Counted from the stretch's first letter, positions 3,996-63,163 are shown. The stretch: 64,000 nucleotides of DNA from an uncultured bacterium (GCA_963746775.1 CAVVCK010000002.1:431656-495655); one strand, 5' to 3'. Made by a program: numbers and translations. Notes: generated by a model not told the origin, from the sequence alone.

Positions 3996-4164
3996 AATAG
4001 AATAAATATAATTAGTATCAAAATTCCTAATTTCTAATAAAATTTTTAATATCCAATGACAAATTATTTTTGAAATTTGACATTTGGATTTTTATTAGGA
4101 ATTAGAAATTGGTAATTGGAAATTAAAACACTGTATTACATAAAACAATATTAGTATAATCCTA
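3996..4164. repeat. Family-1 intergenic inverted-repeat element (GGAATTAGAAATTGGTAAT words)
   Basis: Arms AAAATTCCTAATTTCTAATAAAA and TTTTATTAGGAATTAGAAATTGG flank a nested palindrome ATCCAATGACAAATT...AAATTTGACATTTGGAT. The words are shared with five other loci. Confidence 0.6.
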
Positions 4165-5444: not shown

Positions 5445-5489
5445 TATTGTTTGTTCATTTACAAAATTTCCTTTTCTCTTTATAGCCCT

Positions 5490-5960
5490 AAAATTTAAGG
5501 CTTTAATGAGGAAAGGAGGTAGCATGAGTAGCTACCCGAGTGGGTTTGTCTAACAATAGGCAAAAATGCGAACCAGACCAAGATTCGACGGGGCGTCGAG
5601 GTCTGGTTGAACTTATTTTCCCCGTTAAACCTCTAACTGACAGAAGAAAGGAGGTTAACCCTGATTAAATCAGATTATGGCATGACGGCTTGCCATTTTC
5701 TGAAGAGCAAGAATAACCGTCAAACCCCCTGCATATTAAGGAGGTAAAATGCAGGTACACAAACGCTGGTTAGCAATGCTAACTAGCGCGATCTGAGAAA
5801 ACGCCACTCAGATCGTACAGAGGCGGTTCCCTGGGAGTTACCGCCGGGCGAAAAACTCCCAAACGGCCACGCTCAAGGCCACACCGAGACAGGCGATCTC
5901 GGCATTGAGCACAGGGGGCAAGCACCACATCGATCTTTTGCTTCGCCCCCACCCTTTTCA
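5490..5960 (+). ncRNA. GC-rich structured RNA candidate of unknown class (tmRNA-like D-loop motif, but not a canonical tmRNA or RNase P)
   Basis: About 55% GC against a ~30% background. No ORF longer than 62 aa. Pseudoknot-capable stems GGCGG(5822-5826)/CCGCC(5841-5845) interleave with GGGAGTT(5833-5839)/AACTCCC(5854-5860). Several nested hairpins. Motif GATTCGACGGGG. Three AAGGAGGT-ATG mini-ORFs. A promoter-like site lies upstream and a terminator downstream. Confidence 0.45.
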
Positions 5961-9353: not shown

Positions 9354-9431
9354 ATATTAAATAATTGACCGCAAACTCTTTATTAGTACAGACAAGTTTA
9401 AAACTTGTTTCTTCATTATTAACTTTAAATA

Positions 9432-9882
9432 GGCAGGCTATAAGCCGAATTCTGTCTCATCCGCCATAGATTAACAGCGAAGGCGGATTGCCTTCATTGA
9501 AAACTACGGCGAATACTATGATCATCTATCTAGCCTTACTATTACTAGCAAGGTCATGCTTTTTATAAATTACACCAGATGGGGTTTACCCTATTATAAT
9601 GTTACCATTATAACCTGTGAGCTCTTACCTCACTCTTTTCACCATTGCCTGCCATAGCCTATAAAGGCGACGGCTGGCTGTATATGTCTCTGTGGCACTT
9701 TCCCTCACCCTATCTAGAAGATAGAGTGCAATTGCCGTTAGCAATCACCTTGTTTCAAAGTCCCAAGGATTAATAGAAAATCCTATGAGGTTTTTCTACT
9801 CTCGAATCCATAAGCTCTGAGGTGTTCGGACTTTCCTCCCCTTATTATTATATAAATAATAAGAAGCGATCATAAACCTGCC
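9432..9882 (-). ncRNA. rnpB: RNase P RNA, bacterial type A
   Basis: Minus-strand motifs GGGGAGGAAAGTCCGAAC (P4 5' strand), GGTGAAAAGAGTGAGGTAAGAGCTCAC (J11/12-P12 region) and GACAGAATTCGGCTTATAGCCTGCC (P4 3' strand/P1). The 5' GGCAGG pairs with the 3' CCTGCC. Confidence 0.85.
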
Positions 9883-10010
9883 TACTATAATAATAAAATA
9901 GCAAAGAAATTTATGCTATTATTAAAGTGGATTGGCTTATAACAAGCAATTTAGATAATATGTGAAAATTTTAACTACTCATATTATACTTATTTTAAGT
10001 CTTTTGTCAA

Positions 10011-13850: not shown

Positions 13851-13930
13851 TTTATAAAACCATCCGCTTTATCCGCCAAATCCGCTAATCCGTAAACAAT
13901 AGATAACGGATTAGGCGGATTATTGCGGAT
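13851..13930. repeat. Family-2 palindromic element (ATCCGC/GCGGAT words, REP-like)
   Basis: CCGCTTTATCCGCCAAATCCGCTAATCCGT ... ACGGATTAGGCGGATTATTGCGGATAAGCGG form an imperfect ~30-nt inverted repeat. The same core is seen at 45172, 50854 and, degenerate, at 29610. Confidence 0.65.
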
Positions 13931-13944
13931 AAGCGGAAAATATA

Positions 13945-29609: not shown

Positions 29610-29670
29610 CCTGCTTATCTGTAATATTTAAAAAGCGGACTTAGCGGATTTTAGCAGATACGCGGAAAAA
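29610..29670. repeat. Family-2 palindromic element, degenerate copy
   Basis: CTGCTTATCTGTAAT...AGCGGACTTAGCGGATTTTAGCAGATACGCGGAAAAATAT shares the GCGGATT..GCGGAAAA core with 13851-13930. Confidence 0.45.
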
Positions 29671-29729
29671 TATATTATTTAATATTTTTATTTTACTACT
29701 TATAGAGCCTTGGTGCAATGTTGAAAAGT

Positions 29730-35550: not shown

Positions 35551-35685
35551 ATGATTGTAGAAATTAATTATTTAAAAATTTGATATTTGCAATAGAAACT
35601 TGGAATTAGAAAATAGTTATATACTAATTTCATTTTTCCAATTTCCATTACCAATTTCTAATATCCAAACAGCTATTTTCAATTA
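35551..35685. repeat. Family-1 intergenic inverted-repeat element
   Basis: TTGGAATTAGAAAATAG ... CCAATTTCCATTACCAATTTCTAATATCC. Confidence 0.55.
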
Positions 35686-36959: not shown

Positions 36960-37076
36960 TTGTTTTTTTATTCCCCTCCTTTAATAAGGAGGGGTAGGGG
37001 AGGTTTCGTGGGTACAAAAATACTGTTATTTTATCCACGGAATCCCTCTTAATCTCCCCTTATTAAAAGAGGGAAA
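36960..37076 (-). promoter_or_regulatory. Structured leader with SD-sequestering hairpin upstream of the GT2 gene
   Basis: On the mRNA strand, CCCCTCCTT-attaa-AGGAGGGG holds the only SD-like AGGAGG (about 15 nt before the ATG). Two further GC stems (CCCTCTT/AAGAGGG and CGTGG/CCACG) fit within 117 nt. Confidence 0.3.
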
Positions 37077-39107: not shown

Positions 39108-39323
39108 TTTTTCTATATATAAATATAATTATGTATTTAATTACATTTTAAATTTCTAATACCTAATATCCAATTTCTAATAAAATTTCCAATGATTGAA
39201 TGTCTAATTGAACATTAGTAATTTGTCATTTTCTTGGAAATTGTTAATTGGTAATTGAGAATTATAAAATAAAAATTTACACAAACATTCAAAAAATCAA
39301 ATAGTTTCTATTAACACTCAAAT
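39108..39323. repeat. Family-1 intergenic inverted-repeat element
   Basis: AAATTTCTAATACCTAATATCCAATTTCTAATAAAATTTCCAATG ... TTGGAAATTGTTAATTGGTAATTGAGAATT. Confidence 0.55.
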
Positions 39324-41956: not shown

Positions 41957-42562
41957 TTATTTCTCAGTCTTTTGTAGTTTCTTAACATTCTTATCTATAG
42001 TTTTATTATCAACGCTAGAGGAACCATTCACTGATTTTTCTTTTTTAAGAAAATATGGAGCAATTTCTCTTAAGCCCTTGCCTCTCCCATCAGCAATTTC
42101 TTGAGGACTCCTAATATTACCTAGTATTTTAATAGCGGCTGTAACATTATTGATCTTATTATTAGAACCTAACATTTTTCCTGAAATATTTTTAATTCCT
42201 GCTAACTCCAAAACAGATCTGACAGCACCACCAGCGATAATACCAGTACCCTCGCTAGCAGGCATTAAAATAATTTTTGCACCTTTATATCTACCTTCAA
42301 CTTTATATGGAATCGTACCATTTACAACCGAAATATTAATTATTTTCTTTTTTGCTTGTAGAACTGCTTTCGATATTGCACCTGAAACATCATTACCTTT
42401 AGCAATGCCTATACCAACTCTGCCTTTTCTATCACCAATACAAATACAAGCTCTAAACCTAAATCTCTTTCCACCAGAAACAACTCTAGATACCCTAGCT
42501 AAATCAACTAGCTTTTGATCAAATTCTGGTTTTTTATCTCTTCTTTTTGAAAATTTCCTCAT
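41957..42562 (-). CDS. rpsE: 30S ribosomal protein S5 (with C-terminal extension)
   Basis: LVDLARVSRVVSGGKRFRFRA core. Confidence 0.9.
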   Translation of the reverse strand: MRKFSKRRDKKPEFDQKLVDLARVSRVVSGGKRFRFRACICIGDRKGRVGIGIAKGNDVSGAISKAVLQAKKKIINISVVNGTIPYKVEGRYKGAKIILMPASEGTGIIAGGAVRSVLELAGIKNISGKMLGSNNKINNVTAAIKILGNIRSPQEIADGRGKGLREIAPYFLKKEKSVNGSSSVDNKTIDKNVKKLQKTEK

Positions 42563-42577
42563 AAAATTATTTAATCT

Positions 42578-42955
42578 TTAAAATTTTAACCCACCAGATC
42601 GAGCACCTTCAGCAAAAGCTCTAACTCTTCCTAAATATCTATATCCACCTCTATCAAATACAACTTCAACAATTTTTTTATCCTTAGCTTTCTTGGCAAT
42701 TAATTCTCCTAATTTTTTTGCTTTTTCGGTTTTATTTAACTTCTCGCTTTTTAATTCTTTATCTAAAACTGAAACTAGTGTTTTGCCATCTTCATCATCA
42801 ATGATCTGTGCGTAATTATTCATATTACTTTTGAAAAAAGATACTCTGGGTCTTTTGGCAGTACCAAAAACTTTACTTCTAATTCTAGTATGTCTTTTTA
42901 TTCTCTTTAATTTTTTAATCTTAGCTTGCTTTGTCTTCTTAAATCTTATTTTCAT
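42578..42955 (-). CDS. rplR: 50S ribosomal protein L18
   Basis: [17 protein letters not shown]-like core. C-terminal [23 protein letters not shown]. Confidence 0.9.
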
Positions 42956-43058
42956 TTTTTCTATACTAATTATTACGATGCTAATATACTAATGCATACG
43001 AATCATACGAATGAATTATTAGTATAATTAGTATTCATTCGTATATTTGTATCGCCTA
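42956..43058. repeat. Family-3 intergenic palindromic element (CGATGCTAATATACTAAT ... ATTAGTATTCATTCGTATA)
   Basis: Shares words with 52765-52856 and 55499-55586. Internal inverted repeat ATACGAAT/ATTCGTAT. Confidence 0.55.
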
Positions 43059-43598
43059 TTATGCTTCAGAAGCTGTAGCTTTTTTACCCTCTTTCTTTCT
43101 AACATGTTCATCAATATATCTAATCCCTTTACCTTTATATGGTTCAGGCGATCTCACTTCTCTTATTTCAGCGGAAATTTGCCCTACGAGCTGCTTATCA
43201 ATCCCTGAAATAATAATAATGTTTTTCTCAACTTTAAATTCAATTCCTGCTGGAGCCTCAATTTCTACTGGATTAGTATAACCAATTGTTATAACTAGCT
43301 TTTTACCTTGAATTTGCGCTTTATAACCAACACCAACAATTTCTAATTTCTTTTCAAAACCACGGACAACCCCTTCTACTAAATTACTAACAAGCTGCCT
43401 ATATGTACCCCACATGGCTTTCATTGCTTTATTCTTTAATGATACAATAATTTGTGAATCTTTCTTTTCAATTCCAACATTAGGATTTAAATCTAGTTTC
43501 AATTCTCCTTTTGGTCCTTTGCAAATAATATTGCTCTCTGTAATTTTTATTTCTACCCCTTCTGGAATTGTAATTGGTAGTTTTCCTATTCTAGACAT
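43059..43598 (-). CDS. rplF: 50S ribosomal protein L6
   Basis: MSRIGKLPITIPEGV. Confidence 0.9.
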   Translation of the reverse strand: MSRIGKLPITIPEGVEIKITESNIICKGPKGELKLDLNPNVGIEKKDSQIIVSLKNKAMKAMWGTYRQLVSNLVEGVVRGFEKKLEIVGVGYKAQIQGKKLVITIGYTNPVEIEAPAGIEFKVEKNIIIISGIDKQLVGQISAEIREVRSPEPYKGKGIRYIDEHVRKKEGKKATASEA

Positions 43599-43615
43599 AT
43601 TTTAAAAATATTCGT

Positions 43616-44005
43616 TTAATAAATATAACAAACAACTTCTCCGCCTAAATTATTCTTTTTAGCATTTTTATTAGTCATTAAGCCCTTGGAAGTTGAGATA
43701 ATAGCTACTCCCAAACCATTTAATACATTTGGCAGATTAGCTTTATTTACATAAATTCTTTGTCCTGGTTTGCTTATTTTTCTAATCTTTTGGATTATTG
43801 ATCTTTTTTGTGAATCGTATTTCAATTCTAAAATAATTTCTTTAGGAAATTTATCTTTTACTTTAATAGACTTAATATATCCTTCTTCTTTTAAAATTTT
43901 AGCTAAAGAATTTTTTTCTTTAGACATAGGAATAGAAACCACAGCCAGTTTTGCATTCTGGGCGTTTCTAATTCTGGTTAACATGTCAGATATTGGATCG
44001 GTCAT
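43616..44005 (-). CDS. rpsH: 30S ribosomal protein S8
   Basis: MTDPISDMLTRIRNAQ. Confidence 0.9.
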   Translation of the reverse strand: MTDPISDMLTRIRNAQNAKLAVVSIPMSKEKNSLAKILKEEGYIKSIKVKDKFPKEIILELKYDSQKRSIIQKIRKISKPGQRIYVNKANLPNVLNGLGVAIISTSKGLMTNKNAKKNNLGGEVVCYIY

Positions 44006-44074
44006 ATTTATTCTTTAAAAACATTAAACTTTAAATATAAAACTATAAGAAAAAACAACTACTATTCTTAACTT

Positions 44075-44266
44075 TTACCAACTAGATTTTTTAACACCAG
44101 GAATTTCTCCGTTTGATGCTAGCTCACGAAAATGAATTCTGCAAACACCATATTTTCTCATATAACCATGAATTCTGCCACAACCAGGAATTTTACACCT
44201 ATTTATTTTTCTAGTGCTAAACTTTGGTTTTTTTTCTGCTTTTGCAATTAATGCTGTTCTAGCCAT
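44075..44266 (-). CDS. rpsN: 30S ribosomal protein S14, zinc-binding type Z
   Basis: 63 aa. [25 protein letters not shown]. Confidence 0.88.
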
Positions 44267-44277
44267 ATTTTATTTAA

Positions 44278-44820
44278 TTATTCTTTTTTCTTAAATGGAA
44301 ATCCATATAATTCTAATAACTTCTTTACTTCTTCGTCTTTCTTAGCATTGGTTGTTATACATACTTCCAACCCATAAACCCTCTCTACATCGCTTGAACC
44401 TACTTCTGGAAAAACAGTGTGCTCCTTGAATCCTATGGAATAATTGCCAGATCCATCAAAACTTTTAGTAGATATACCTCTAAAATCTCTAACACGAGGA
44501 AATACTACATTGATTAACTTATTCAAAAATTCATACATATATTCTCCGCGCAAAGTTACTTTTAATCCTATTACTTGTCCTTCTCTTATAGAAAAACCAG
44601 ATATAGCTTTTTTTGCTGTAGTTTTAACTGGAGCTTGTCCTGTAATTTTTTTAATAGTCTCAATTACCTCATCAATATATTTAGTTTCTTTTAAAAATGG
44701 TCCAAGTCCAACATTTACAGTTACTTTCTTAATATTAGGTACTTGTAGATTATTTTTAAAACCAAACTTTTCCTTCATTTTCGGTACTATTTCTTTTTTG
44801 TATCTTTCCTTTAATGTCAT
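44278..44820 (-). CDS. rplE: 50S ribosomal protein L5
   Basis: MTLKERYKKEIVPKMKEKFGFKN. Confidence 0.9.
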   Translation of the reverse strand: MTLKERYKKEIVPKMKEKFGFKNNLQVPNIKKVTVNVGLGPFLKETKYIDEVIETIKKITGQAPVKTTAKKAISGFSIREGQVIGLKVTLRGEYMYEFLNKLINVVFPRVRDFRGISTKSFDGSGNYSIGFKEHTVFPEVGSSDVERVYGLEVCITTNAKKDEEVKKLLELYGFPFKKKE

Positions 44821-44829
44821 AAATATTTA

Positions 44830-45153
44830 CTAAATTACGTTTTTACATTTTTTACAAATTCTTGTCTTCTTTTTATCTTGAATCTTTGTTCCAACTCTTA
44901 CTGGTTTATTGCACTTTGAACAAAATATCATAGCGTTAGAGCTAGATATAGGCGCATTAAATTCAATTCTCTCACCTTTTTCCTTGCCTTTTCTTTGCTT
45001 TAAATGTTTGTACATCTTATTTACACCTTCAACTACAACTTTGTTATTTTCAGAAAATATCTGCAAAACTTTGCCTTTTTTACCTCTATCTTTTCCATTA
45101 ATAACTACTACTATATCGTCTTTTTTTATCTTCATAATATTTATACTTAACAT
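44830..45153 (-). CDS. rplX: 50S ribosomal protein L24 with C-terminal Cys4 zinc-ribbon-like extension
   Basis: MKIKKDDIVVVINGKDRGKKGKVLQI KOW core. C-terminal CSKCNKPV...CKKCKNVI. Confidence 0.85.
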   Translation of the reverse strand: MLSINIMKIKKDDIVVVINGKDRGKKGKVLQIFSENNKVVVEGVNKMYKHLKQRKGKEKGERIEFNAPISSSNAMIFCSKCNKPVRVGTKIQDKKKTRICKKCKNVI

Positions 45154-45171
45154 AAATCATTAACTATGTAA

Positions 45172-45250
45172 TTATCCGCTTTATCCGCCAAATCCGCTAT
45201 ATCCGTAAACTACAAATAGCGGATAAAGCGGATTCTGCGGATAGACGGAA
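45172..45250. repeat. Family-2 palindromic element (ATCCGC words) inserted between rplN and rplX
   Basis: TTATCCGCTTTATCCGCCAAATCCGCTATATCCGTAAAC...TAGCGGATAAAGCGGATTCTGCGGATAGACGG. CCGCTTTATCCGC and GCGGATAAAGCGG are exact reverse complements. Confidence 0.65.
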
Positions 45251-45280
45251 AAAACATACTGATAAATTTTATAATCTACT

Positions 45281-45649
45281 CTATAATACTTCTGGTGCTA
45301 ATGAAATAATTTTCATATAGCCAGCTTTTCTAACTTCACGAGCAATTGGACCAAATATACGACTTCCTTTTGGCTCTTTTCCATCCAATATAACTGCTGC
45401 ATTATCATCAAATCTAACAAAACTACCGTCTGCTCTAGTAAACTCTTTTCTTTGCCTGACAATCACAGCCTTTACTACTTCCTTTTTCTTAACTATACCA
45501 CGAGGTAGAGCTTCTTTTACTGAGGCAACTATAATTTCTCCTATTCCAGCATAAGTTTTTTTATTCCCACCAGGTAGAACTTGAATACACTTAATTACTT
45601 TTGCTCCGGTATTATCAGCTACTATTAGCTTTGTTCCTTTTTGTATCAT
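45281..45649 (-). CDS. rplN: 50S ribosomal protein L14
   Basis: [17 protein letters not shown]. Confidence 0.92.
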
Positions 45650-45658
45650 ATAAATAAA

Positions 45659-45916
45659 TTATTTAACAATTTTTACAACTCTCCATCTTTTATCTCTTGA
45701 TAGGGGCCGACATTCTCTAATTATAACTTTATCTCCTTCATGATATTCATTCTTCTCATCGTGAGCTTTGTATTTTTTAGTTATTTTATATCTTTTCTTG
45801 TATAATCTGTGTGTTTTAAAAGTATCAACTGCTACCACAACAGTTTTATCTGCTTTATCACTTACAATAACACCCGTTAAATTCCTATATATTTTATTAA
45901 CTTTTTTATTATCCAT
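45659..45916 (-). CDS. rpsQ: 30S ribosomal protein S17
   Basis: GVIVSDKADKTVVVAVDTFKTHRLYKK. Confidence 0.9.
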   Translation of the reverse strand: MDNKKVNKIYRNLTGVIVSDKADKTVVVAVDTFKTHRLYKKRYKITKKYKAHDEKNEYHEGDKVIIRECRPLSRDKRWRVVKIVK

Positions 45917-45924
45917 AATTTTAC

Positions 45925-46140
45925 TTATTTACTTTCGTTAGATACTTTTTCTAATAATATCTTTTCTTTCATAATAGTTAAAATTTGACTTATACCTTTC
46001 TTAATTTTATCTACTTTTTTATAATCTTTAACTTGTCTTGAAGCAACTTTAAATCTGACTTCACGCAATTCATTCCTCTGTTCTGCTAAAAGCTTATGTA
46101 ATTCTTTATTAGTCTTTTTTCTTATTTCTTCTACTTTCAT
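45925..46140 (-). CDS. rpmC: 50S ribosomal protein L29
   Basis: MKVEEIRKKTNKELHKLLAEQRNELREVRFK. Confidence 0.85.
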   Translation of the reverse strand: MKVEEIRKKTNKELHKLLAEQRNELREVRFKVASRQVKDYKKVDKIKKGISQILTIMKEKILLEKVSNESK

Positions 46141-46149
46141 TATTTTTAT

Positions 46150-46566
46150 CTATTGTTCTTTTGATACAAACTTAGTTTTAATTGGTAATTTATTGGAAGC
46201 AAGTCTCATTGCTTCTTTAGCAATGTCAAAACTTACACCATCCATTTCAAATACAATTCTGCCCGGTTTTACTGGTACTACATAATGGTCAACTGCGCCC
46301 TTTCCCTTACCCATAGGAACTTCAGCACCTTTCATAGTAACTGGCTTATCTGGAAATATTCTAATCCAGACCTTTCCACCTCTTTGAATAAAACGTGTCA
46401 TTGCTCGCCTAGCTGCCTCAATCTGACGTGAAGTAATCCATTTTTGCTCTAAAGCTTTCAATCCATAAGTTCCAAAATCTAAATTACATCCAGCCTTAGA
46501 TTTACCTTTGGTTCTTCTGGTTCCCTTATGCCATTTTCTATGTTTTACTTTCTTAGGAATTAACAT
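46150..46566 (-). CDS. rplP: 50S ribosomal protein L16
   Basis: [15 protein letters not shown] ... RIFPDKPVT. Confidence 0.92.
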
Positions 46567-46574
46567 ATATATAA

Positions 46575-47240
46575 TTATTTCTTATCCTTATTTTTACTTT
46601 TATTAAAAATCTCACCTTTATAAATCCAAACTTTAATACCTATAATACCATATGTCGTTAAAGCATTGTACTTAGCAAAGTCTACATTAGCGCGCAGCGT
46701 ATGTAAAGGAATTTTTCCTTCGGCTAACCATTCTCTTCTGGCAATATCAACTCCTCCAAGACGTCCAGCTACCATAATTTTAATTCCTTCTACATCCCTT
46801 GCCTGCATTGATTTTTCTATAGCTTTCTTTAAAGCTTTTCTATATGATATTCTTTTTTCTAACTGTTCAGCAATATTTTGGGCAACCAGATTAGCGTTTT
46901 CTTCTGGGTTCTTTATTTCTTTAATATTTATTTCAACTTTAGATTTTTTTGAAGATATAAGCTTCTTAGCATCTTTCTTTAATTCTTCTACCCCTACACC
47001 CGATCTGCCAATAATTATACCTGGTCTAGAAGAATAAATATTAATTTTTACAACTTGTGGACCTCGTTCTATCTGACAATCAGCAACACCAGCATTTTTT
47101 AATTTTTTATTTATAAAATCCTTTAACTTAAGGTCTTCAAGAAAATAATTTCTATATTTTTTGCCATCAGCAAACCACTTAGAATGCCAAGTCTTATTTA
47201 TACCTAAACGAAAACTAATTGGATTTATTTTGTGTCCCAT
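46575..47240 (-). CDS. rpsC: 30S ribosomal protein S3
   Basis: [25 protein letters not shown] domain. Confidence 0.92.
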
Positions 47241-47258
47241 AATAAATTTTTAAAATTA

Positions 47259-47798
47259 TTATACGCTCTTACGTCTAAATATTTTCTTTAATACTCCACC
47301 ATTTCTAGATGGTTTAGTATTTCTTTTATTATTTATATCAAATTTATTTTTCTTCTTATCGTTTCTATTATCTTTATTATCCTTATCATCTTTTTCATTT
47401 TTTAGATTAGTCTGAGTTATGGTTTTTTTATCTTTTACTATACTTTTAGCTTTTTTTTTGCCAGCTACCCTTTCATCTAAAACTAAGGTAACATGCGAAG
47501 TTCTTTTTATTATTGGATTAGCCCTGCCAAAAGCTCTTGGTTTCCATCTCTTCAATACAGCACCTCCATCTACAAAAACCTTACTAATATATAGATTGCT
47601 TTTTTCCATACTATAATTATGTTCTGCTGTAGCTACTGCTGAATTTAATAATTTTAAAATTGGTAAAGATGCTTTTTTTCTTAGATTTTTCAATTGCATC
47701 TCACCTTTTTCTACATCTAATCCCCTAATCAAATCAACTACCAAGCGGCATTTCTGAGGAGACATATGTAAATGTTTTGATTTACTAGTTAATTTCAT
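47259..47798 (-). CDS. rplV: 50S ribosomal protein L22 (with long basic C-terminal extension)
   Basis: L22 core (SPQKCRLVVDLIRG...). C-terminal KD-rich low-complexity tail. Confidence 0.88.
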   Translation of the reverse strand: MKLTSKSKHLHMSPQKCRLVVDLIRGLDVEKGEMQLKNLRKKASLPILKLLNSAVATAEHNYSMEKSNLYISKVFVDGGAVLKRWKPRAFGRANPIIKRTSHVTLVLDERVAGKKKAKSIVKDKKTITQTNLKNEKDDKDNKDNRNDKKKNKFDINNKRNTKPSRNGGVLKKIFRRKSV

Positions 47799-47816
47799 AA
47801 TTATTGAATATCAATA

Positions 47817-48149
47817 TTATTCTTTTTTATCTTTTACTGGAGCAGCAGGTGCTGATTCTTTTACCTTTGCTTCTGCTTCTTCTTCTTTAGCCATTCTGCC
47901 ACCATGTACTACGAATTTCTTAGTAGGTGAAAATTCACCTAATTTATGCCCCACCATTTCTTCTGTTATAAATACAGGAATATGTTCTTTCCCATTATGA
48001 ACACCTAAAGTAAAATTGATCATTTCAGGAAAAATGGTTGATCTTCTAGACCAGGTTTTAATGATTCTTTTATCTCCTGGCTTTAGGTCTTTAATTTTTT
48101 TTAATAACTTAGGATCACAGAATGGTCCTTTTTTAAGTGATCTGGACAT
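47817..48149 (-). CDS. rpsS: 30S ribosomal protein S19 (with C-terminal Ala/Lys/Glu tail)
   Basis: [10 protein letters not shown] ... [10 protein letters not shown]. Confidence 0.9.
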
Positions 48150-48153
48150 AATA

Positions 48154-48996
48154 TTATTTTCTTCTTTTAATAATCAATTTACTTGATCTCTTTTTCTTAT
48201 TTCTTGTCTTAACACCGATGGCTGGCTTACCCCAAGGTGTTTTAGGATGTTTCATACCTATCGGAGTTGATCCTTCACCACCACCATGCGGATGATCAAC
48301 TGGATTCATTGCTTTACCTCTGACGTGCGGTCTAATACCTTTCCATCTTTTTCTACCTGCTTTACCTATCTCTATATTAATATGTTCTACATTACTTACT
48401 TGGCCAACAGTTGCCATACAACTAGATAATATATTTCTTACCTCACCCGAAGAAAGTTTTACCTGGGCATATTTATTCTCTATAGACATTAACTGAACTT
48501 GTGAACCAGCACTTTTGGCTAACTGTGAACCTCTACCAGGGTAAAGTTCTATTTCAGAAATAAATGTACCTGTTGGAATATATTTCATAGGCATTCTATT
48601 ACCTATATTTGCATCTATTTTCTTTTTAGATGATAAAATTTTGTCTCCTACTTTAATTAATTCAGGAGCAACTATATAACTTTTTTTACCATCTTCATAT
48701 TTAATTAAAGCAATAAAAGCGGTCCTATTTGGATCATACTCTAGGGCAATTACTTCTGTAATCTCATCATATCTACTTCTTTTGAAATCAACTATTCTAT
48801 ATCTTCTACTATTACCACCACCTCTGTGTCTCGAAGTAACTCTACCAGTACTTTTACTTCTGCCAGTTTTTTTTCTGGATTTCAATAATAAAGATTTCTC
48901 CGGTTTTTTCTTTGTTAGAACACTATAATCAACCGTTTTCATATAACGTCTCGATGGGGTTGTTGGTTTGTAAGTTTTTACTGACATATCTAACAA
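48154..48996 (-). CDS. rplB: 50S ribosomal protein L2
   Basis: [11 protein letters not shown] signature. Confidence 0.92.
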
Positions 48997-49181
48997 TTAA
49001 TAATTGATAATAAATAATGAAAATGAAATTAGTTATTTAGAAAATAGAAATTTGTAATAGATATTAGAAACTAGAATTACAAATTTCTATTTTCTACTTT
49101 CAATTACCCTTTTCTAGTTTCTGTACATCCAGTTTCATGTAAAATATTTTAAATGTGATCACTTTCAATAACAAATATAAT
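48997..49181. repeat. Family-1 intergenic inverted-repeat element inserted between rplW and rplB
   Basis: TAGAAAATAGAAATTTGTAATAGATATTAGAAACTAGAATTACAAATTTCTATTTTCTA (imperfect palindrome). A 185-nt gap in an otherwise tightly packed operon. Confidence 0.55.
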
Positions 49182-49574
49182 TTATACACCATCATATATC
49201 TGAATCGTCTGTCCTTTAGGTAAAGCTACTATAGCTTTTTTGTAAGTAGATGTCCTGCCTTGTACTTTGCCATATCTTCGCTCTTTTCCACCAACCTTTA
49301 TAGTATTAATACTTATTGGTTTTATTCCATAAACATCTTTAATTGCCTGACTTATTTCTTTTTTATTAGCTTTATTTGATACTATAAAAATATATTTATT
49401 CTCTTCACTTAAATAAGTTGCTTTCTCAGAAATTTGGGGATAAAGTAAAATTTTGTGAGCATTGCTTTCAATTTTAGCTTTCGATTTTTCAACCTTTTTA
49501 GGAGTTTTCTTTTTGCTATCTTTCTTTTTACTATCAACTTTTTCTTCTTTTTTAAATTTATCTAAAATACTCAT
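49182..49574 (-). CDS. rplW: 50S ribosomal protein L23 (with N-terminal Lys-rich extension)
   Basis: LLYPQISEKATYLSEENKYIFIVSNKANKKEI. Confidence 0.88.
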   Translation of the reverse strand: MSILDKFKKEEKVDSKKKDSKKKTPKKVEKSKAKIESNAHKILLYPQISEKATYLSEENKYIFIVSNKANKKEISQAIKDVYGIKPISINTIKVGGKERRYGKVQGRTSTYKKAIVALPKGQTIQIYDGV

Positions 49575-49583
49575 TTTATAAAT

Positions 49584-50216
49584 TTATTGTTTATAATTAT
49601 TTTGCAAATTTTCTACAGCCTGAACAGTCATTAAAAGTGAATCATATTTTAAAATATCATATAAATTTAGACTTTCGGTAGTAGTTAATTTCATCTTAGG
49701 AGCATTCTTAATAGACTTTAATATTGTTTTATCTTGTATTCCTAAAACTACTAAAGCATTTTCATTTTTAACTGGTAATTTATTAATACTTTTTACAAAT
49801 TCCTTAGTGCTAATTTTCTTCATTTTTAATTCATCAACTAAAATCAATTTTTTATCATTTACTTTAGAACTCAGAGTCATGAATAAAGCTTTTTTTCTTT
49901 CTTTCTTGTTAATTTTTTTCTTGAAATTAATATTAGAACTTGGTCCAAAAGTAACACCACCACCAACCCAGATAGGAGATCTATTTGATCCATGACGTGC
50001 TCTGCCTGTACCTTTTTGTTTCCATGGTTTTCTACCACCACCTCTTACTTCACTTCTATCTTTTACGTGTGCTACTACGTTTCTTTTATTGGAAAGATGA
50101 GCAACTACAACCTTATGAATAACTTCTTTTTTTACTTCAATATCAAAAATATCCTTATCTAAATCTAGATCTTTTACTTTCTTACCTTCCATATTGTAAA
50201 CTGTAACTTTCGCCAT
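49584..50216 (-). CDS. rplD: 50S ribosomal protein L4
   Basis: RGGGRKPWKQKGTGRARHGS. Confidence 0.92.
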   Translation of the reverse strand: MAKVTVYNMEGKKVKDLDLDKDIFDIEVKKEVIHKVVVAHLSNKRNVVAHVKDRSEVRGGGRKPWKQKGTGRARHGSNRSPIWVGGGVTFGPSSNINFKKKINKKERKKALFMTLSSKVNDKKLILVDELKMKKISTKEFVKSINKLPVKNENALVVLGIQDKTILKSIKNAPKMKLTTTESLNLYDILKYDSLLMTVQAVENLQNNYKQ

Positions 50217-50217
50217 T

Positions 50218-50832
50218 TTATGATTTTATAAAAACTAAACTTTCTCTAGCACCAGGAATACCACCTTTTAAAATAATTAAATTTTTATCAACATCTAAAT
50301 CTATAACTTCAGAATTTAAGGTTACTTTATCTCCGCCCATTCTACCAGCCATCCTTAAACCTTTTATAACATGTTCAGGATAACCAGCACCGATTGAACC
50401 AGGTTTTCTTAAATCATGTTTGTGACCATGTGTTTTTGGAGATCCATGAAATTTATGTCTCTTAACAACTCCAGCGAATCCCATACCTTTTGATTTAGCA
50501 ATAATTTTCACTTTATCCCCTTTTTCGAAAACATCAACTTTTATTTCTTGTCCTTCTTTAACATCATTCAATTCATCTACTCTTAATTCTCTTAGATATC
50601 TTAATTTGTCTTTTCCTTTTAATGCTTTATTCAAATGTCCTGTTCTTGGTTTATTATTTTTTGCAGTTTCGGAAAAACCAATTTGTAAACTATTATATCC
50701 TTCTTTTTCAACTTTTTTTATTTGGGTAACATAACAAGGTCCAGCAGTAACTAAAGTAACAGGAATAGCTTTCCCTTTTTCGTTATAAATTCTGCTCATT
50801 CCAATTTTTTTTCCTATAATTACTTTATACAT
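50218..50832 (-). CDS. rplC: 50S ribosomal protein L3
   Basis: IIGKKIGMSRIYNEKGKAIPVTLV. Confidence 0.92.
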   Translation of the reverse strand: MYKVIIGKKIGMSRIYNEKGKAIPVTLVTAGPCYVTQIKKVEKEGYNSLQIGFSETAKNNKPRTGHLNKALKGKDKLRYLRELRVDELNDVKEGQEIKVDVFEKGDKVKIIAKSKGMGFAGVVKRHKFHGSPKTHGHKHDLRKPGSIGAGYPEHVIKGLRMAGRMGGDKVTLNSEVIDLDVDKNLIILKGGIPGARESLVFIKS

Positions 50833-50853
50833 AATAAAATAATATTAAATTAA

Positions 50854-50915
50854 TTCCGCGCTATCCGCAAACTAAGTTATTGCGGATGATACGGATAAAG
50901 CGGATTACGCGGATC
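50854..50915. repeat. Family-2 palindromic element (ATCCGC words) in the rpsJ-rplC spacer
   Basis: TTAATTCCGCGCTATCCGCAAACTAAGTTATTGCGGATGATACGGATAAAGCGGATTACGCGGAT. Confidence 0.6.
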
Positions 50916-50932
50916 AATAAATTACGTAAATT

Positions 50933-51100
50933 AATATTTACCTATCAAAAACCGGAAATTTAAGAAGCCAGAAAACATACGCCGGCTTCTAAAATTTCCG
51001 GACCTTGCTTACTTTAAATTTACTAAATAACAATAAAATAATTATTTAGTAAATTCTTTAGCTTATACTTTTAAGTCCCGATTTTAATCGGAACTTTAAT
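50933..51100. other. Three consecutive hairpins in the rpsJ-rplC spacer
   Basis: CCGGAAATTTAAGAAGCC...GGCTTCTAAAATTTCCGG (17/18 bp). TTACTAAATAA...TTATTTAGTAA (11 bp perfect). AAGTCCCGATT-tta-AATCGGAACTT. Confidence 0.5.
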
Positions 51101-51111
51101 TATAAACTATC

Positions 51112-51441
51112 CTACATTTTAATCTCAATATCAACTCCAGCTGGTAAATTCAGATTAGTTAATGCTTCAATAGTATCTGGCTTCGGTTTTAAAATATCAA
51201 TCAATCTTTTATGAATTCTCATTTCAAATTGCTCTCTGGCATCTTTATGAACAAAGGTAGATTTATTAACTGTCTCTACTCTTTTCTCTGTAGGCAGAGG
51301 GACTGGCCCGCAAATCTCCGCCCCAGTTCTCTTGGCTGTTTCTACAATTTGAATAACTGCTTGATCAATTATCTTATGATCAAATGCTTTAATTTTTATT
51401 CTTATTCTTTGGGTTATCTCTTCTTCTTGGTTTTTAGACAT
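51112..51441 (-). CDS. rpsJ: 30S ribosomal protein S10
   Basis: [19 protein letters not shown] ... GPVPLPT. Confidence 0.92.
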
Positions 51442-51468
51442 TTTAATTAAAAGGTACTATTCAATTAA

Positions 51469-52659
51469 TTATTTAATAATTTTAGTAACCACACCAGCTC
51501 CAACCGTCTTGCTACCTTCTCGGATAGCAAACTTTTGTTTTTCTTCCATAGCAATTGGTGCTCCAAGCTTTACATTTAAATTAGCTGTATCACCAGGCAT
51601 AACCATTTCTGTACCTGCGGGTAATTCTACTTCTCCTGTTACATCAGTAGTTCTGAAATAAAATTGTGGCTTATATCCTTTAGCGAAAGCTGTATGTCTT
51701 CCACCTTCTTCTTTAGTTAGAGCATAAATTTCTGCTGAAAATTCAGTATGAGGAGTAATTGTCCCCGGTTTAGCTAAAACTTGACCTCGCTCTACATCTT
51801 CTTTCTTTGTTCCACGAAGCAGAATACCTGCGTTATCACCTGCTTGGCCTTCATCTAATTGTTTATTAAACATTTCAATTCCTGTCACAACTGTCTTTGG
51901 AGTATCTTTAAGACCAACTATTTCAACTTCATCATTTAAATTAACTTTTCCTCGCTCAATTCTACCAGTCACAACTGTACCACGTCCTTCAATTGAGAAA
52001 ATGTCTTCGATTGGCATTAAGAAAGGTTGATCAACATCTCTTTTTGGTTCTGGAATATATGAATCTAACTTTTCGAATAATTCTAAAATTGGTTTAGCAT
52101 CATCACCTGTTGGATTTTCTAAAGCTTTTAGAGCCGAACCACGAATGATGGGTATTTCATCGCCAGGATATTCATATTTTTTCAATAAATCTCTTACTTC
52201 CTCTTCAACTAAATCAACTAATTCAGGATCATCAACCTGATCAACTTTATTCAAAAATACAATAATAGAAGGGACACCAATTTGATGAGCTAATAAAATA
52301 TGTTCTCTCGTTTGAGGCATGGGACCATCAGTAGCAGAGACTACTAGAATTGCACCGTCCATTTGAGCAGCACCTGTAATCATATTTTTAATATAATCAG
52401 CATGGCCTGGACAATCAACGTGGGCGTAATGTCTTTTTTCAGTCTCATATTCACAGTGAGCAGTAGCAATAGTAATTCCTCTTTCTCTCTCTTCAGGTGC
52501 GGCGTCAATTTGATCAACTCCTTTTTCCTGAGCTTTTCCTTTACCAGAAGCATTTAAAACTTTAAGCATAGCGGCTGTTAGCGTAGTTTTACCATGGTCA
52601 ACATGACCAATTGTACCAACATTAATGTGAGGTTTTCCTCTTTCAAATTTATCTGCCAT
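51469..52659 (-). CDS. tuf: Elongation factor Tu
   Basis: [19 protein letters not shown]. 396 aa. Confidence 0.95.
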
Positions 52660-52764
52660 TTTTTTATTTTTAGTTAATAGTTATATAAAATATTAGTTTA
52701 TATTATAGCTGTAAATTTACTTATGTCAAATGTTTTTTGGGCTTTTTCACAGTATTAATATACC

Positions 52765-52856
52765 AATTTATGCGAATTATACGAATAAATACTTGATTAG
52801 TATTATTAATATCAATTAGTATGCTTATCTCGAGTATTTTCGAGAGATTAGCATCG
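52765..52856. repeat. Family-3 intergenic palindromic element
   Basis: TATGCGAATTATACGAATAAATACTTGATTAGTATTATTAATATCAATTAGTATGC...GATTAGCATCG. Confidence 0.5.
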
Positions 52857-52861
52857 AAATA

Positions 52862-53191
52862 TTAGAAATCATCATCTAGATCTTCATATAGATATTGGGT
52901 TTCATTTTTTAAATCTTCATCAGTAGAATCGCCTGTTAAAAAATGATCATCTAGATTTTTTTCCTCTTCATTTTGACTAGCGTGCCAAATAGCTATATCT
53001 TTATTGATTTTCTCTACTAATTCTTCTTTAGACATTTCTCCTATAAAAACATTTTCTGAATTAGAGACTATTTTCTTATATTCCTTAATATCCATTAATA
53101 CATATGAGGGTTTACCTTCTTCTACAATAATATACTTACCACTAGAATTTTTTAATAGATCAATAATTTCGGAAAAATCTTTTGAATTCAT
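52862..53191 (-). CDS. Small acidic protein with Phd/YefM-antitoxin-like N-terminal domain, inserted between fusA and tuf
   Basis: N-terminus YIIVEEGKPSYVLMDIKEYKKI resembles the Phd/YefM fold. Highly acidic C-terminus (EDLDDDF). No cognate toxin adjacent. Confidence 0.4.
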   Translation of the reverse strand: MNSKDFSEIIDLLKNSSGKYIIVEEGKPSYVLMDIKEYKKIVSNSENVFIGEMSKEELVEKINKDIAIWHASQNEEEKNLDDHFLTGDSTDEDLKNETQYLYEDLDDDF

Positions 53192-53392
53192 AAAATTATG
53201 TTAAATTATTTATATTATTTCTTTTATTGTAATCTATCAATAAAGACAAATCTAATATAAATATTGAAATATATAGAAACTTATTGAAATTCACAGAAAT
53301 TAATTGTTGTTTACCATGTACTCAGAAAAACAACAACGAATTTCCTATACTTCGACAAACTCAGCACAAGATTTCTATTAATTTCTAAGTTT

Positions 53393-55498
53393 CTATTTCT
53401 TTTCATCTTCTCCAATAATTTCTTTAGCGACATTGCCTGGAACTTGCTCATATTTCTCGAATTCCATTGTATAATTAGCTCGTCCTTGAGTTAGAGATCG
53501 TAGTGAAGTTGAATATCCGAACATGGAAGCTAAGGGTACAAAAGCTTTGATAACTTTCATATTTGTTCTATCAGTCATTTCTTGAATCTGCGCTCTTTTT
53601 GAATTTAGATCACCTACTACATCACCCATTGATTTTTCTGGAGTAAGTACTTCGACTCTCATTACTGGTTCGAGTAAAACTGGATTAGCTTTTTTAACAC
53701 CACTACGGAAAGCCATAGATCCAGCTATTTTAAAGGCAGCTTCTGAAGAGTCAACATCATGATAAGAACCATCATATAAAGTTACTTTTACATCTATAAC
53801 CGGATAACCAGCTAATACTCCATTATCAGATGCTTCTTTGGCTCCTTTACCAACTGGCTGTATATATTCTTGAGGAATAACTCCTCCTTTTATTTCATTA
53901 ACAAATTCAAAACCCTTACCTCTTTCCTGAGGTTCAAGTCTTAACCAAACATGACCGTATTGTCCACGTCCTCCTGATTGCTTAATATATTTTCCTTCAA
54001 CTTCTGTAGCAATTGTTATTGCTTCTTTATAAGCTACTTGCGGTTTGCCTACTGTTGCTTCTACTTTAAATTCTCTCTTCATGCGATCAACTAAAACATC
54101 TAAATGAAGCTCTCCCATACCAGCTATGATTGTCTGCCCAGTATCCTCATCAGTTTTAACTCGAAAAGTAGGATCTTCTTCAGCTAATTCTCTAAGTGCA
54201 TGAGCCATTTTTTCTTGATCTGCTTTAGTCTTTGGTTCAATAGCAACTGATATAACCGGCTCAGGAAAAGTAATTTTTTCTAATATTATAGGATTATCTT
54301 CATCACATAAAGTATCACCAGTCGTTGTACCTTTTAAACCTACAATAGCAGCAATATCACCAGTATATACTTCTTTAATTTCTTCTCTTTTATTGGCATG
54401 CATACGCACAATTCTACTAACCCTTTCTTTCTTGCCAGTTGAAGCATTAAGGATATATGATCCAGCTTTTAATACTCCCGAATAAACTCTGAAAAATATT
54501 AATTTACCAACAAAAGGATCTGTGGCTACTTTAAAAGCAAGCCCGGCAAATGGTTCGTTATCATCTGTTTTTCTAATTATCTCTTTTTCTTCGTCGTGAA
54601 CATCGCAGCCATGAGCTGGTGGAACATCTAATGGCGAAGGAAGTAAATCAACTACAACATCGAGTAATTTTTTTATAACAGCTTTTCTACCATCACCGCC
54701 AAGTACTGGATAATATTCTCCAGAAATAACACCCTTGCGCATTGCTCTTTTATATTCATCTACGGATATTTCTTGGCCATCTAGAAATTTTTCCATAACC
54801 TTATCATCAGCTTCTACAATTATTTCTAACATTTCATTTCTATATTTCTCACAAATTTCTTTCATATCTTCTGGAATTTCTTTTGCTTCAGATAATTCTA
54901 AACCATCTGTACCTTCAGTATAATAAGCCTTCATTTCTAGTAAATCAACTAAGCCTTTGATATCTTCTCCTTGACCAATCGGTAACATTATAGGAAAAGC
55001 TTTATTGCTTAATCTTTCTTTAATAGAATCTAGAGATCTATAAAAATCTCCACCAACTAAATTCAATTTATTTAAAAAACATATTCTGGGAACTTTATAT
55101 TTATCAGCTTGATGCCAAACTGTTTCCGATTGTGGTTCAACACCCATTTTACCATCAAATATTACTACTGCACCATCTAAAACTCGCAGTGATCTTTCCA
55201 CTTCCACAGTAAAATCAACATGACCTGGTGTATCAATAATATTTATACGATGTTCGTTTTTTTCTTTTAAATTAGTCGGAGACCAAAAACAAGTCGTAGC
55301 TGCCGAAGTGATAGTAATACCTCGCTCTCTTTCTTGTTCCATCCAATCCATAGTAGCTTCACCTTCATGAACTTCACCAATTTTATAAGAAATTCCAGTG
55401 AAATATAAAATACGCTCTGTGACTGTGGTTTTTCCAGCATCAATATGAGCGATTATTCCTATATTTCTTATTTTTTCGAGTGGATATTGTCTTGGCAT
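53393..55498 (-). CDS. fusA: Elongation factor G
   Basis: [21 protein letters not shown]. 701 aa. Confidence 0.95.
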
Positions 55499-55586
55499 AT
55501 TTTCGATACTAATATACTAATTTATACGAATTATACTAATACAAAATTATTCGTATTATTAGTATTCATTCGTATATTGGCATCGA
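55499..55586. repeat. Family-3 intergenic palindromic element between rpsG and fusA
   Basis: CGATACTAATATACTAATTTATACGAATTATACTAATACAAAATTATTCGTATTATTAGTATTCATTCGTATA. Confidence 0.55.
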
Positions 55587-56054
55587 TTATCTTGCATAGT
55601 GTGCAAAAGCCTTATTGGCTATAGCCATTCTATGAACATCCTCTTTCTTTTTAACAGCACTACCTAAACCTTTGGAGGCTTCGATAATTTCAGAAGCTAA
55701 TTTTTGAGCCATAGGCTGACCCTTTTTGCCTCTAGCAACTTCAAGCATCCAGCGCATAGCTAGGGTGTTTTTGCGACTACCTCTAACTTCAAAAGGTATT
55801 TGGTAATTAGCTCCACCAATTCTGCGACCTTTAATTTCTAGTGTTGGAGAAACATTTTTCATGGCTTGATTAAAAACTGACATAGGATCTTTTTTGGTTT
55901 TCTCTGCTACAATATCAAAAGCATCATAAATTATAGATACAGCTACTGATTTCTTGCCACCTTTCATAATATGATTAATAAATTTGCCTATTAAAGCATT
56001 TTTATGTTTTGGATCTAGATATTCTTCTCTTTTATATACTTGTTTTTTTCGCAT
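55587..56054 (-). CDS. rpsG: 30S ribosomal protein S7
   Basis: KFINHIMKGGKKSVA ... conserved S7 core. Confidence 0.92.
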   Translation of the reverse strand: MRKKQVYKREEYLDPKHKNALIGKFINHIMKGGKKSVAVSIIYDAFDIVAEKTKKDPMSVFNQAMKNVSPTLEIKGRRIGGANYQIPFEVRGSRKNTLAMRWMLEVARGKKGQPMAQKLASEIIEASKGLGSAVKKKEDVHRMAIANKAFAHYAR

Positions 56055-56139
56055 AATATTAGGGTTTAATTATTAAAGAATAGGGTGTAGAATTTTATTA
56101 ATTACTGACTACTAACTATTCTCTATTCCCTTAAAAAAA

Positions 56140-56610
56140 TTATTTACTTTCTTCTTTAGGAACTTCGGCAGGCGCTGCCTTCTTCTTGGCTCCCTTACTG
56201 CTTTTATCTAATTTAGCACCATATAGACTTCTTCCCTGTTTTCTGCCATCTACACCGCCTGTATCAAGCGGTCCACGAACAATATGATATTTAACACCGG
56301 GCAAATCTTTTACTCTACCACCACGGACAAGTACTACAGAGTGTTCTTGTAAATTATGACCTTCTCCTGGAATATAGGCAGTAACTTCCGTACCATTAGT
56401 AAGTCTGACACGAGCAATCTTTCTTAGAGCAGAGTTTGGCTTCTTAGGAGTCATAGTGGTTACTTTCATACAAACTCCTCTTTTGAAAGGATTGCCAGTT
56501 TTTACAAATTTCTTTTTAATTTTATTAAAATCACGCTGCAGTGCAGGTGACTTGGGTTTTCTCTTAACAGTTTTTCTTCTTCTCTTTACTAATTGATTAA
56601 TAGTTGGCAT
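56140..56610 (-). CDS. rpsL: 30S ribosomal protein S12 (with C-terminal extension)
   Basis: [13 protein letters not shown] ... [10 protein letters not shown]. Extra C-terminal ~30 aa, Lys/Ala-rich. Confidence 0.92.
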
Positions 56611-56999
56611 TTATAGTTATAAATAAAAAAATATCTATATAAATAGATAGAAATTATATTAATTTCCTTTATCAATACTTATTATAGTAAGCAAAAAAAA
56701 GATGTCAAATGAATTTAATAAATTAGTTATTAGGAAATAGATATTATAAGATTATTTATCAAATAAAACCGAATAATCTTATTTAAAAAATAGAAACTGG
56801 CTATATAGAAAATAGAAATTGGTAATAGAAATTAGAAAAATTGAAAATAGTTATGATATAATTCAAATGAAACAAAAGCTATTTTCTAATTTCCAATTAC
56901 TATTACTATCTTCCAATTTCTAAATAGCTAATTTCAATTTCATTTTTTAAAATCTCTGATTTCATATGATATTCAATTATTAGATATTATTTCCCACAT
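56611..56999. repeat. Family-1 intergenic inverted-repeat element (largest copy) upstream of rpsL
   Basis: Left arm TAGAAACTGGCTATATAGAAAATAGAAATTGGTAATAGAAATTAGAAAAATTG. Right arm CTATTTTCTAATTTCCAATTACTATTACTATCTTCCAATTTCTAAATAG. Confidence 0.6.
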
Positions 57000-62969: not shown

Positions 62970-63163
62970 ATATTATACTATTAGTTTATTGAAATATTAA
63001 TTCTACTACCAAAACTTTAAATTACTGAAATTGGCTGTATAGAAATTAGATATTGGTAATAAAAAGTGGAAAATGGATAAATATAACCTAGGTAAAATAA
63101 TATCTAATTTCTAACTTCTAATTTCCATCACTATTTTCCAATTTCTATATAATTAATTTCTGA
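62970..63163. repeat. Family-1 intergenic inverted-repeat element
   Basis: AATTGGCTGTATAGAAATTAGATATTGGTAATAAAAAGTGG ... TATCTAATTTCTAACTTCTAATTTCCATCACTATTTTCCAATTTCTATA. It shares GGCT(A/G)TATAGAAA(A/T)TAG with 56778. Confidence 0.6.

Follow-up and report, generated by a model that had tools for sequence, protein, structure and literature searches.

The 64,000-nucleotide (nt) stretch of DNA analysed here (GCA_963746775.1, CAVVCK010000002.1:431656-495655; referred to as the window) comes from an uncultured bacterium and contains exactly three copies of one imperfect palindrome, the family-3 element, in the spacers between rplF and rplR, between a Phd-like open reading frame (ORF) and tuf, and between rpsG and fusA. 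These copies are probably (at roughly 70% in our estimate) non-autonomous derivatives, resembling miniature inverted-repeat transposable elements (MITEs), of a compact nuclease-carrying mobile element widespread in the Patescibacteria (candidate phyla radiation, CPR), and would be mobilised in trans by its nuclease. The argument draws on the observed element family and its distribution, insertion polymorphism, gene link, decay intermediates and within-genome clustering.

Three copies of one palindrome in the window

A first-pass annotation, made from the sequence alone, had placed three such elements at about these positions, and both nhmmer searches and shared-word statistics put their relatedness far beyond chance. 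A common 20-mer (ATTAGTATTCATTCGTATAT) occurs twice exactly in the window versus 0.01 times expected, CTAATATACTAATNNATACGAAT has five matches at up to three mismatches versus 0.01 expected, and ATACGAAT occurs eight times versus 1.7 expected, with seven of the eight lying within the three copies. Moreover, a profile built from unrelated genomes matched the 64 kb at the three copies only (E 1.1e-18, 4.5e-18 and 2.5e-9; the next at E 4.9), and AT-richness (the window has a GC content of ~31%) is no explanation for the similarity.

After their limits were refined by reading the sequence directly, the copies measure 79-107 nt. Copy 1 (42976-43054; CGATGC...GTATCG; nhmmer 63 bits, E 1.1e-18) is a gene-less palindrome that begins 4 nt past the rplF stop codon and ends 20 nt short of the rplR ATG, with CGATGCTAATATAC and GTATATTTGTATCG as its ends, ATACTAAT, ATACGAAT and ATACGAAT as its left-arm units, and ATTAGTAT, ATTAGTAT and ATTCGTAT as its right-arm units. 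Within the 20 nt separating it from the rplR ATG, just outside its left end, the stretch 42960-42975 carries one further ATACTAAT unit (42963-42970, read from the sequence) and may be left over from an earlier or tandem element end; comparable duplications of a terminal segment were also seen in two loci of other genomes (L002 and L070). Copy 3 (55504-55585; CGATAC...GCATCG; 61 bits, E 4.5e-18) is likewise gene-less, has CGATACTAATATAC and GTATATTGGCATCG as its ends, and fills 82 of the 88 nt of the rpsG/fusA spacer (from 1 nt past the rpsG stop to 5 nt before the fusA ATG), so that copies 1 and 3 both take up nearly their whole spacers. Copy 3 is also present in a Logan contig (L001) that is 99.97% identical to the window.

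Copy 2 (52750-52856; 33 bits, E 2.5e-9) is a decayed element that starts 5 nt past the stop of the Phd-like ORF. Its left end reads CAGTAT-TAATATACCAAT-TT-ATGCGAAT and its right end ATTAGCATCG, and, compared with the family consensus, the last ATTCGTAT unit of its right arm is replaced by a 22-nt insert (52825-52846) forming a small hairpin (TTATCTCGAGTATTTTCGAGAG). Immediately downstream of this copy lies a perfect sigma-70 promoter for tuf (TTGACA-16-TATAAT; 52729-52702, minus strand, ~36 nt upstream of tuf), from whose -35 box the copy is separated by 20 nt, and copy 2 therefore probably falls outside the tuf transcript.

Folding of the minus-strand RNA, suggested in the first-pass annotation, gives structures that stand out for copies 1 and 3 but not for copy 2. 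For the former, both strands yield long hairpins with imperfect pairing, at -22.5 to -24.8 kcal/mol and z -3.2 to -5.0 (-24.1 kcal/mol, z -3.2, for copy 1 on the mRNA strand and -23.9 kcal/mol, z -4.3, for copy 3); these two copies must be co-transcribed with their operons as hairpins of about -24 kcal/mol, while the fold of copy 2 is indistinguishable from shuffles (z about -1.8). The stems of the copies are A/U-rich. The proposed restriction to spacers of the str and spc operons holds for this window but is marginal: since 26 of the 74 window junctions lie in the str/spc region, finding three of three copies there has a p of about 0.04, and the restriction is not a property of the family.

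The element family and its nuclease gene

The family was sampled by scanning one genome per species with an exact 22-nt pattern (TAATATACYAATNNATRCGAAT), which yielded 95 stretches from ~71 assemblies; ~64 of these assemblies carry real elements, and a handful of the matches are isolated chance hits. The carriers are nearly all titled Patescibacteria (Saccharibacteria, Parcubacteria groups, Magasanikbacteria, Doudnabacteria and Woesebacteria) and range from 26 to 55% in GC content. The abundance of copies elsewhere, like the failure of AT-richness as an explanation, speaks against the refuting conditions set in the first-pass annotation. A profile search of these loci (given below as L numbers) identified 135 elements, the short form of which spans 80-110 nt and follows the consensus cgCGATRC-TAATATACTAAT-nc-ATRCGAAT-kATACnAAT-(variable loop)-ATTCGTAT-cATTAGTAT-nc-ATTyGTATATTGGyATCGcg. 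The short element is non-coding, is bounded by terminal inverted repeats (TIRs; CGATRC-YAATATAC and GTATATTRGYATCG), and contains 8-mer units every 9-10 nt that are nearly invariant over lineages of very different GC content. The T/G asymmetry between its arms is conserved as well, but is partly a product of the seeding pattern.

The elements are almost always intergenic (81 co-directional, 13 convergent and 13 divergent junctions), often within a few nt of the flanking stop and start codons, and the 12 that appeared to lie within ORFs mostly reflect N-terminal over-extension of the ORF. Among the proteins encoded next to the elements (n = 140), 186 Pfam families are represented, and most neighbours are unrelated. 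Junctions in other genomes include rplE/rplX, rplX/rplN, rplB/rplW, tuf/rpsJ and rplJ/rplL. As observations in their own right, in several lineages ~8 element ends out of 303 run on into TAAGCGAAGCG(N0-3)ATG, whose ATG serves as start codon for the gene that follows (L002 at ~175-192, L007 at 2923-2937, L041 at ~1805-1822, L070, L087 at ~591-612, L020 and L081), and in L007 the N-terminus of that gene is altered compared with the empty site in L135. Half-arms also occur in frame inside long ORFs (L023 at 7330-7375, L043 at 1358-1398 and L064 at 1313-1354), where they translate as ...DTNIRMHANDTN... and may be gene fusions or start codons supplied by the arm.

These data bear on the first-pass proposals that the copies are RNA processing or attenuation sites or mimics of autoregulatory sites for ribosomal proteins. 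According to such an explanation, the palindromes would act as cis-regulatory RNA of ribosomal protein operons (i.e., as RNase III site, attenuator or autoregulatory mimic), which would suit the stable mRNA-strand hairpins of copies 1 and 3, whose ends stand 20 and 5 nt short of the following start codon, and the recurrence of the family beside translation genes (rplJ/rplL three times, tuf, and several S10/spc junctions in L022). However, this recurrence involves no fixed junction and most copies flank unrelated genes. No orientation preference was found, with 25 elements one way and 21 the other at 46 co-directional junctions, and the tuf promoter is downstream of copy 2. Rfam searches of the copies at gathering and relaxed thresholds returned only chance miRNA-like hairpin matches, with no ribosomal protein leader among them even at relaxed E-values; none of the five terminator-like sites in 42500-56700 falls inside a copy, and a promoter and terminator scan found nothing inside the copies above shuffle level. 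Across 18 consensus stem pairs no covariation was detected, the pairs being nearly invariant (covariation term -0.2), and it is sequence rather than structure that is conserved in the family.

Nor is the junction kept in relatives: three loci whose S7 is at least 90% identical to that of the window (L097, L098 and L099) have a different 115-nt insert at rpsG/fusA and no family-3 copy. The absence of orientation bias, the diversity of junctions and this different insert together make the earlier remark that all copies stand in the transcribed orientation uninformative. Regulation in cis is accordingly very improbable and is largely refuted as the primary function, which leaves the MITE as the one earlier suggestion to survive, given the short TIR-bearing dispersed copies, the polymorphic sites and the coding partner with the same ends. 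The spacer insert of the close relatives belongs to a separate group of G/C-richer paired hairpins (CCCCTCCTTTAATAAGGAGGGG-type; L097 1363-1480 and L098 1083-1202), which also occurs in the window at 36960-37076 and which fills the rpsG/fusA spacer where the window has family-3.

Three specific candidates were rejected in the course of this comparison. An intrinsic terminator or attenuator needs a G+C-rich stem and a U-tract, versus the A/U-rich stems and the lack of a terminator site in the copies; a ribosomal protein leader RNA is contradicted by the lack of an Rfam covariance match and of covariation, by the differing junctions and by the absence in relatives. TIGR-Tas arrays, a candidate on account of their association with CPR, consist of tandem units of ~36 nt with box C/D motifs beside a tas gene (10.64898/2026.09.09.750476), versus a unit period of 9-10 nt without visible box C/D in the three copies; the Pfam matches of the ORFs adjoining the copies include no Nop-domain family.

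In five loci (L055, L094, L038, L050 and L089), two half-elements flank an ORF of 129-136 amino acids (aa) that Pfam and NCBIfam assign exclusively to PF13366 (PDDEXK_3) and TIGR04256 (GxxExxY), with scores of 53-73 bits versus a cut-off of 22 for Pfam and 47-70 bits versus a cut-off of 35 for NCBIfam. The full element then spans ~445-520 bp, with two inverted arms of ~45 nt around one gene; each arm ends in (CG)CGATRC-YAATATAC and bears three to four direct repeats of the 8-mer ATRCKAAT spaced 9-10 nt. The ATG of the nuclease gene lies inside the left-arm unit ATGCGAAT, and ACGAAT/ACTAAT units encode the N-terminal T-N repeats of the protein. When metagenome loci were retrieved with the protein alone (n = 80), arms were present on the 5′ side in 71, on the 3′ side in 69 and on both sides in 62 of them.

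The catalytic residues of the nuclease (D68, E78 and K80, i.e., D...E-x-K) are invariant in 42 homologs, and a minimal PD-(D/E)XK fold is predicted by AlphaFold2 (pLDDT 86). The nearest solved structures (Cas4, lambda-exonuclease-like and Hjc, at a TM of about 0.4-0.5) are generic neighbours that do not decide the mechanism. A sequence search of the PDB with the nuclease found no real relative, and its Foldseek similarity to the PD-(D/E)XK homing endonuclease I-Ssp6803I was negligible (E 0.22, TM 0.27). PADLOC assigned the nuclease to no defence system, and in PHROGs its sole match is a family without assigned function. GxxExxY matches extend to at least 6281 clusters, the named ones being called "GxxExxY protein", and the family is listed as being of unknown function (PMC3424549).

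Copies that bear the gene are strongly co-oriented with their neighbours (59 of 67 upstream, p 1e-10; 65 of 70 downstream, p 2e-14). Since gene-less copies show no such co-orientation, this suggests that the nuclease gene depends on read-through from host operons.

More distant GxxExxY genes lie between inverted arrays of other units, i.e., CACTGAT (L085) or CACAGAT (L095). In the cultured gut bacterium Bacteroides finegoldii (NZ_OY725952.1, L301), a GxxExxY gene between radA and a gene for a FAD-dependent protein is flanked by 30-nt inverted arms (1425-1454 and 1867-1896; 90% complementary) with three 9-nt CRCRGAGGA units each, and in Treponema saccharophilum such a gene lies between 16-nt inverted repeats. 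No such flanking repeats were present at two other, plasmid-borne GxxExxY examples, and the array-flanked architecture is therefore common in the family but not universal.

Insertion, decay and competing explanations

Two pairs of filled and empty sites document insertion. A 481-nt element in L101 is missing in L130 and L137, where a 9-nt gap (TAA-AATATATCT-ATG) stands between flanks that are 86-90% identical, and a 77-nt element in L007 is missing in L135 (TAA-TTTT-ATG); both pairs thus correspond to precise insertion into stop-to-start gaps of 4-9 nt. Neither a target-site duplication or direct repeat nor a clear target motif was found in 92 flank pairs or in these two comparisons. Intermediates of decay are present as well: at a site occupied by an intact long element in L135, 72 aa of the nuclease are left in L007, the arms of L033 enclose no more than 20 C-terminal residues of it, and L009 and L091 retain N-terminal pieces. 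Moreover, element identity is 0.80 within versus 0.71 between genomes (reached in 0 of 2000 permutations), and 26 of 48 copies have their closest counterpart within their own genome. In one metagenome-assembled genome, 9 copies are spread over four loci, and a 99% identical pair stands at different loci with different flanks.

That the GxxExxY nuclease is the mobilising enzyme, and how it would act, we infer as follows. The nuclease may recognise the unit arrays and cut at or near the ends, or at a cruciform formed by the arms, after which host repair or recombination would place the segment in a stop-start gap of a few nt without duplicating the target. Loss of the gene would leave a palindrome of 80-110 nt that retains the sites required in cis and could still be multiplied in trans. 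The window copies would then be passengers in the str and spc operons, presumably tolerated because they contain no U-tract terminator and because there is no use of Shine-Dalgarno (SD) sequences that an insertion could displace.

The same gene-bearing and gene-less copies can be read in reverse, with the short palindrome as the primary entity, spread by other means, and the GxxExxY gene as a homing-type parasite that cuts palindrome centres and is copied in via homology of the arms. Both kinds of copies indeed share the same arms and often stand side by side (L134, L172, L140 and L055), and family-3 loops also take other insertions (L059, L012, L031 and window copy 2). The lack of target duplication, the flank change at the L007 site (which resembles co-conversion) and the co-orientation of the gene with host operons would also suit free-standing homing endonuclease genes. 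On the other hand, partial genes between arms (L033, L007, L009 and L091) are what decay of long copies predicts, and the empty site facing the 481-nt L101 element holds no palindrome, so that the long form can enter a naive site. The spread of the short form on its own would moreover be left without explanation, and we consider this reversal unlikely.

With free-standing homing endonuclease genes (e.g., T4-like seg/mob and the PD-(D/E)XK enzyme I-Ssp6803I), the element has in common the small co-oriented nuclease gene between conserved genes and, for the long form, presence or absence between relatives without target duplication. Unlike the element, however, homing endonuclease genes lack terminal inverted repeats of the array type and MITE-like progeny, and one genome can hold the elements at many sites that share no homology.

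Another system to be compared is that of the repetitive extragenic palindromic (REP) sequences and their REPIN doublets with REP-associated tyrosine transposases (RAYTs), in which a small gene likewise lies between inverted copies of a repeat that is dispersed as intergenic hairpin doublets in genome-specific subfamilies. By analogy, the arms and a single-copy nuclease could be vertically inherited residents, long maintained for a benefit to the host (mRNA stabilisation, operon punctuation or nucleoid organisation) rather than purely selfish. A distribution over many CPR classes, under one recognisable consensus and with subfamilies peculiar to single genomes, would fit this, as would the element's zero matches in 2.9 million viral contigs and its copies within essential, highly expressed operons. 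Nevertheless, the gene here encodes a PF13366 PD-(D/E)XK nuclease and not a Y1 HUH enzyme (RAYT, PF01797), the repeat keeps its sequence from class to class, in contrast to REP sequences, which vary from one species to the next, and positions are not conserved between relatives. Long-term residence of this kind strikes us as improbable.

The regular spacing of the 8-mers, nearly invariant across very different GC contents, could finally reflect a conserved DNA-binding array, i.e., ATRCKAAT boxes at helical spacing that serve as operator or nucleoid-protein site, are selected per locus and have nothing to do with mobility. Such an array would be hard to reconcile with presence and absence at orthologous sites, near-identical copies at unrelated loci of one genome, a nuclease gene embedded between the arms and the lack of a consistent position relative to promoters or gene classes, and we give it hardly any credence.

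Mobilisation in trans by a nuclease-carrying element thus remains our preferred explanation, and several points weigh against it. We know of no stand-alone PD-(D/E)XK nuclease that catalyses strand transfer, and the integration chemistry is left unexplained by the absence of both target duplication and clear target motif. The 64-kb window itself holds no nuclease gene. Clean filled/empty pairs number only two, and in the L007 pair the flanks show further differences of 13 nt and two codons. Short copies were sampled from a single arm pattern as seed, the taxon labels are the depositors' own, and the very high conservation across classes at 26-55% GC also fits selection for a host function.

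Bacterial MITEs (Correia/NEMIS of Neisseria, ERIC/IRU of enterobacteria, RUP and BOX) resemble the element in being imperfect palindromes of ~80-150 nt with terminal inverted repeats, present in many copies per genome, also inside operons as co-transcribed hairpins, and at positions that vary among strains. Among the hallmarks of a MITE, a short non-coding body with TIRs, multiple copies at polymorphic sites and a longer coding element with the same ends were all found here, but not a target-site duplication (Correia elements duplicate TA). The end-sharing partner also differs, being a 130-aa PD-(D/E)XK nuclease and neither a DDE nor any other recognised transposase, the arms are arrays of 8-mers, and the family spans a superphylum instead of one genus or family. 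Rickettsia palindromic elements share the AT-rich palindromic repeat of ~100 nt and the small, reduced genome; these typically sit in frame inside coding genes without a known partner gene, whereas the present element is intergenic.

No earlier description of the element, of its link to the nuclease or of any role for GxxExxY was found in searches of the literature. A MITE with a coding partner is known as a kind; without known precedent are a partner enzyme of this family, ends built as arrays, the missing target duplication and conservation across a superphylum. Beyond the window, we tentatively suggest, at somewhat less than even odds, that GxxExxY proteins are the mobility nucleases of an unrecognised class of tiny elements, characterised by inverted arrays of 7-9 nt units, insertion into operon gaps without target duplication and the shedding of MITE-like palindromes, with family-3 as its pan-Patescibacteria branch and the genes between CACTGAT, CACAGAT and CRCRGAGGA arms as other subfamilies.

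The element lies inside the most essential operons of tiny, tightly packed CPR genomes and is near-identical across classes. Should its mobilisation by the nuclease prove real, a family listed as unknown and comprising at least 6281 clusters would gain a first function. This would also mean that MITEs can form without a transposase, and would account for much of the repeat content between the genes of CPR genomes. The element would then serve as a ready marker with which to tell strains apart, and possibly as a compact tool for insertion into organisms that are very difficult to manipulate. With its own example, Bacteroides finegoldii is a cultured organism in which the idea could be studied.

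Gene setting and other repeats of the window

The window belongs to a source contig of 547,535 bp, and nearly all genes of the window are on the minus strand. Pfam matches give the order rpsL, rpsG, fusA, a weak Phd/YefM-like ORF, tuf, rpsJ ... rplF, rplR, rpsE, rplO, secY, and agree with the names of the genes flanking all three copies. In the ribosomal cluster, S5 is directly followed by L15 without L30, an adjacency that is a hallmark of CPR. An SD-like 4-mer at -20..-4 was found for only 2 of the 75 window ORFs, and translation initiation in this organism appears to be SD-independent. The ORF between fusA and tuf (52862-53191, 109 aa) resembles Phd/YefM antitoxins at a sub-threshold score (24.9 bits versus a cut-off of 29.8), is preceded by a 201-nt spacer (53192-53392) and has no evident toxin partner. 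Bacterial RNase P class A RNA (9425-9885, minus strand, 166 bits) is the sole Rfam family above its gathering score in the 64-kb window, in which no tRNA genes were found.

Other palindromic families made of unit arrays occupy spacers of the window and could share an origin of the kind proposed for family-3. One has ATCCGC/GCGGAT units ~9 nt apart (13858-13940, 29640-29700, 45165-45262 and 50850-50925) and sits in spacers including rplX/rplN and rplC/rpsJ. Regular-expression searches detected this family in none of the other CPR loci and window families A and B in none of 178 CPR loci; a further search pattern for the ATCCGC family gave at least 120 non-specific matches and was dropped. A third palindromic family has AGAAATTGG/CCAATTTCT-type units (3996-4164, 35551-35685, 39108-39323, 48997-49181, 56750-56940 and 63010-63163), and an element similar to it is nested within a family-3 element in L059.

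Finally, a GC-rich non-coding stretch of ~390 nt (5480-5872) folds on the minus strand at -144 kcal/mol (z -7.0) and has no Rfam match even at E<=1. It contains three anti-SD-like motifs (ACCUCCUU), while its plus strand reads as three AAGGAGGU followed by ATG and tiny ORFs; these SD-like motifs contrast with the genes of this organism, which almost never bear one.

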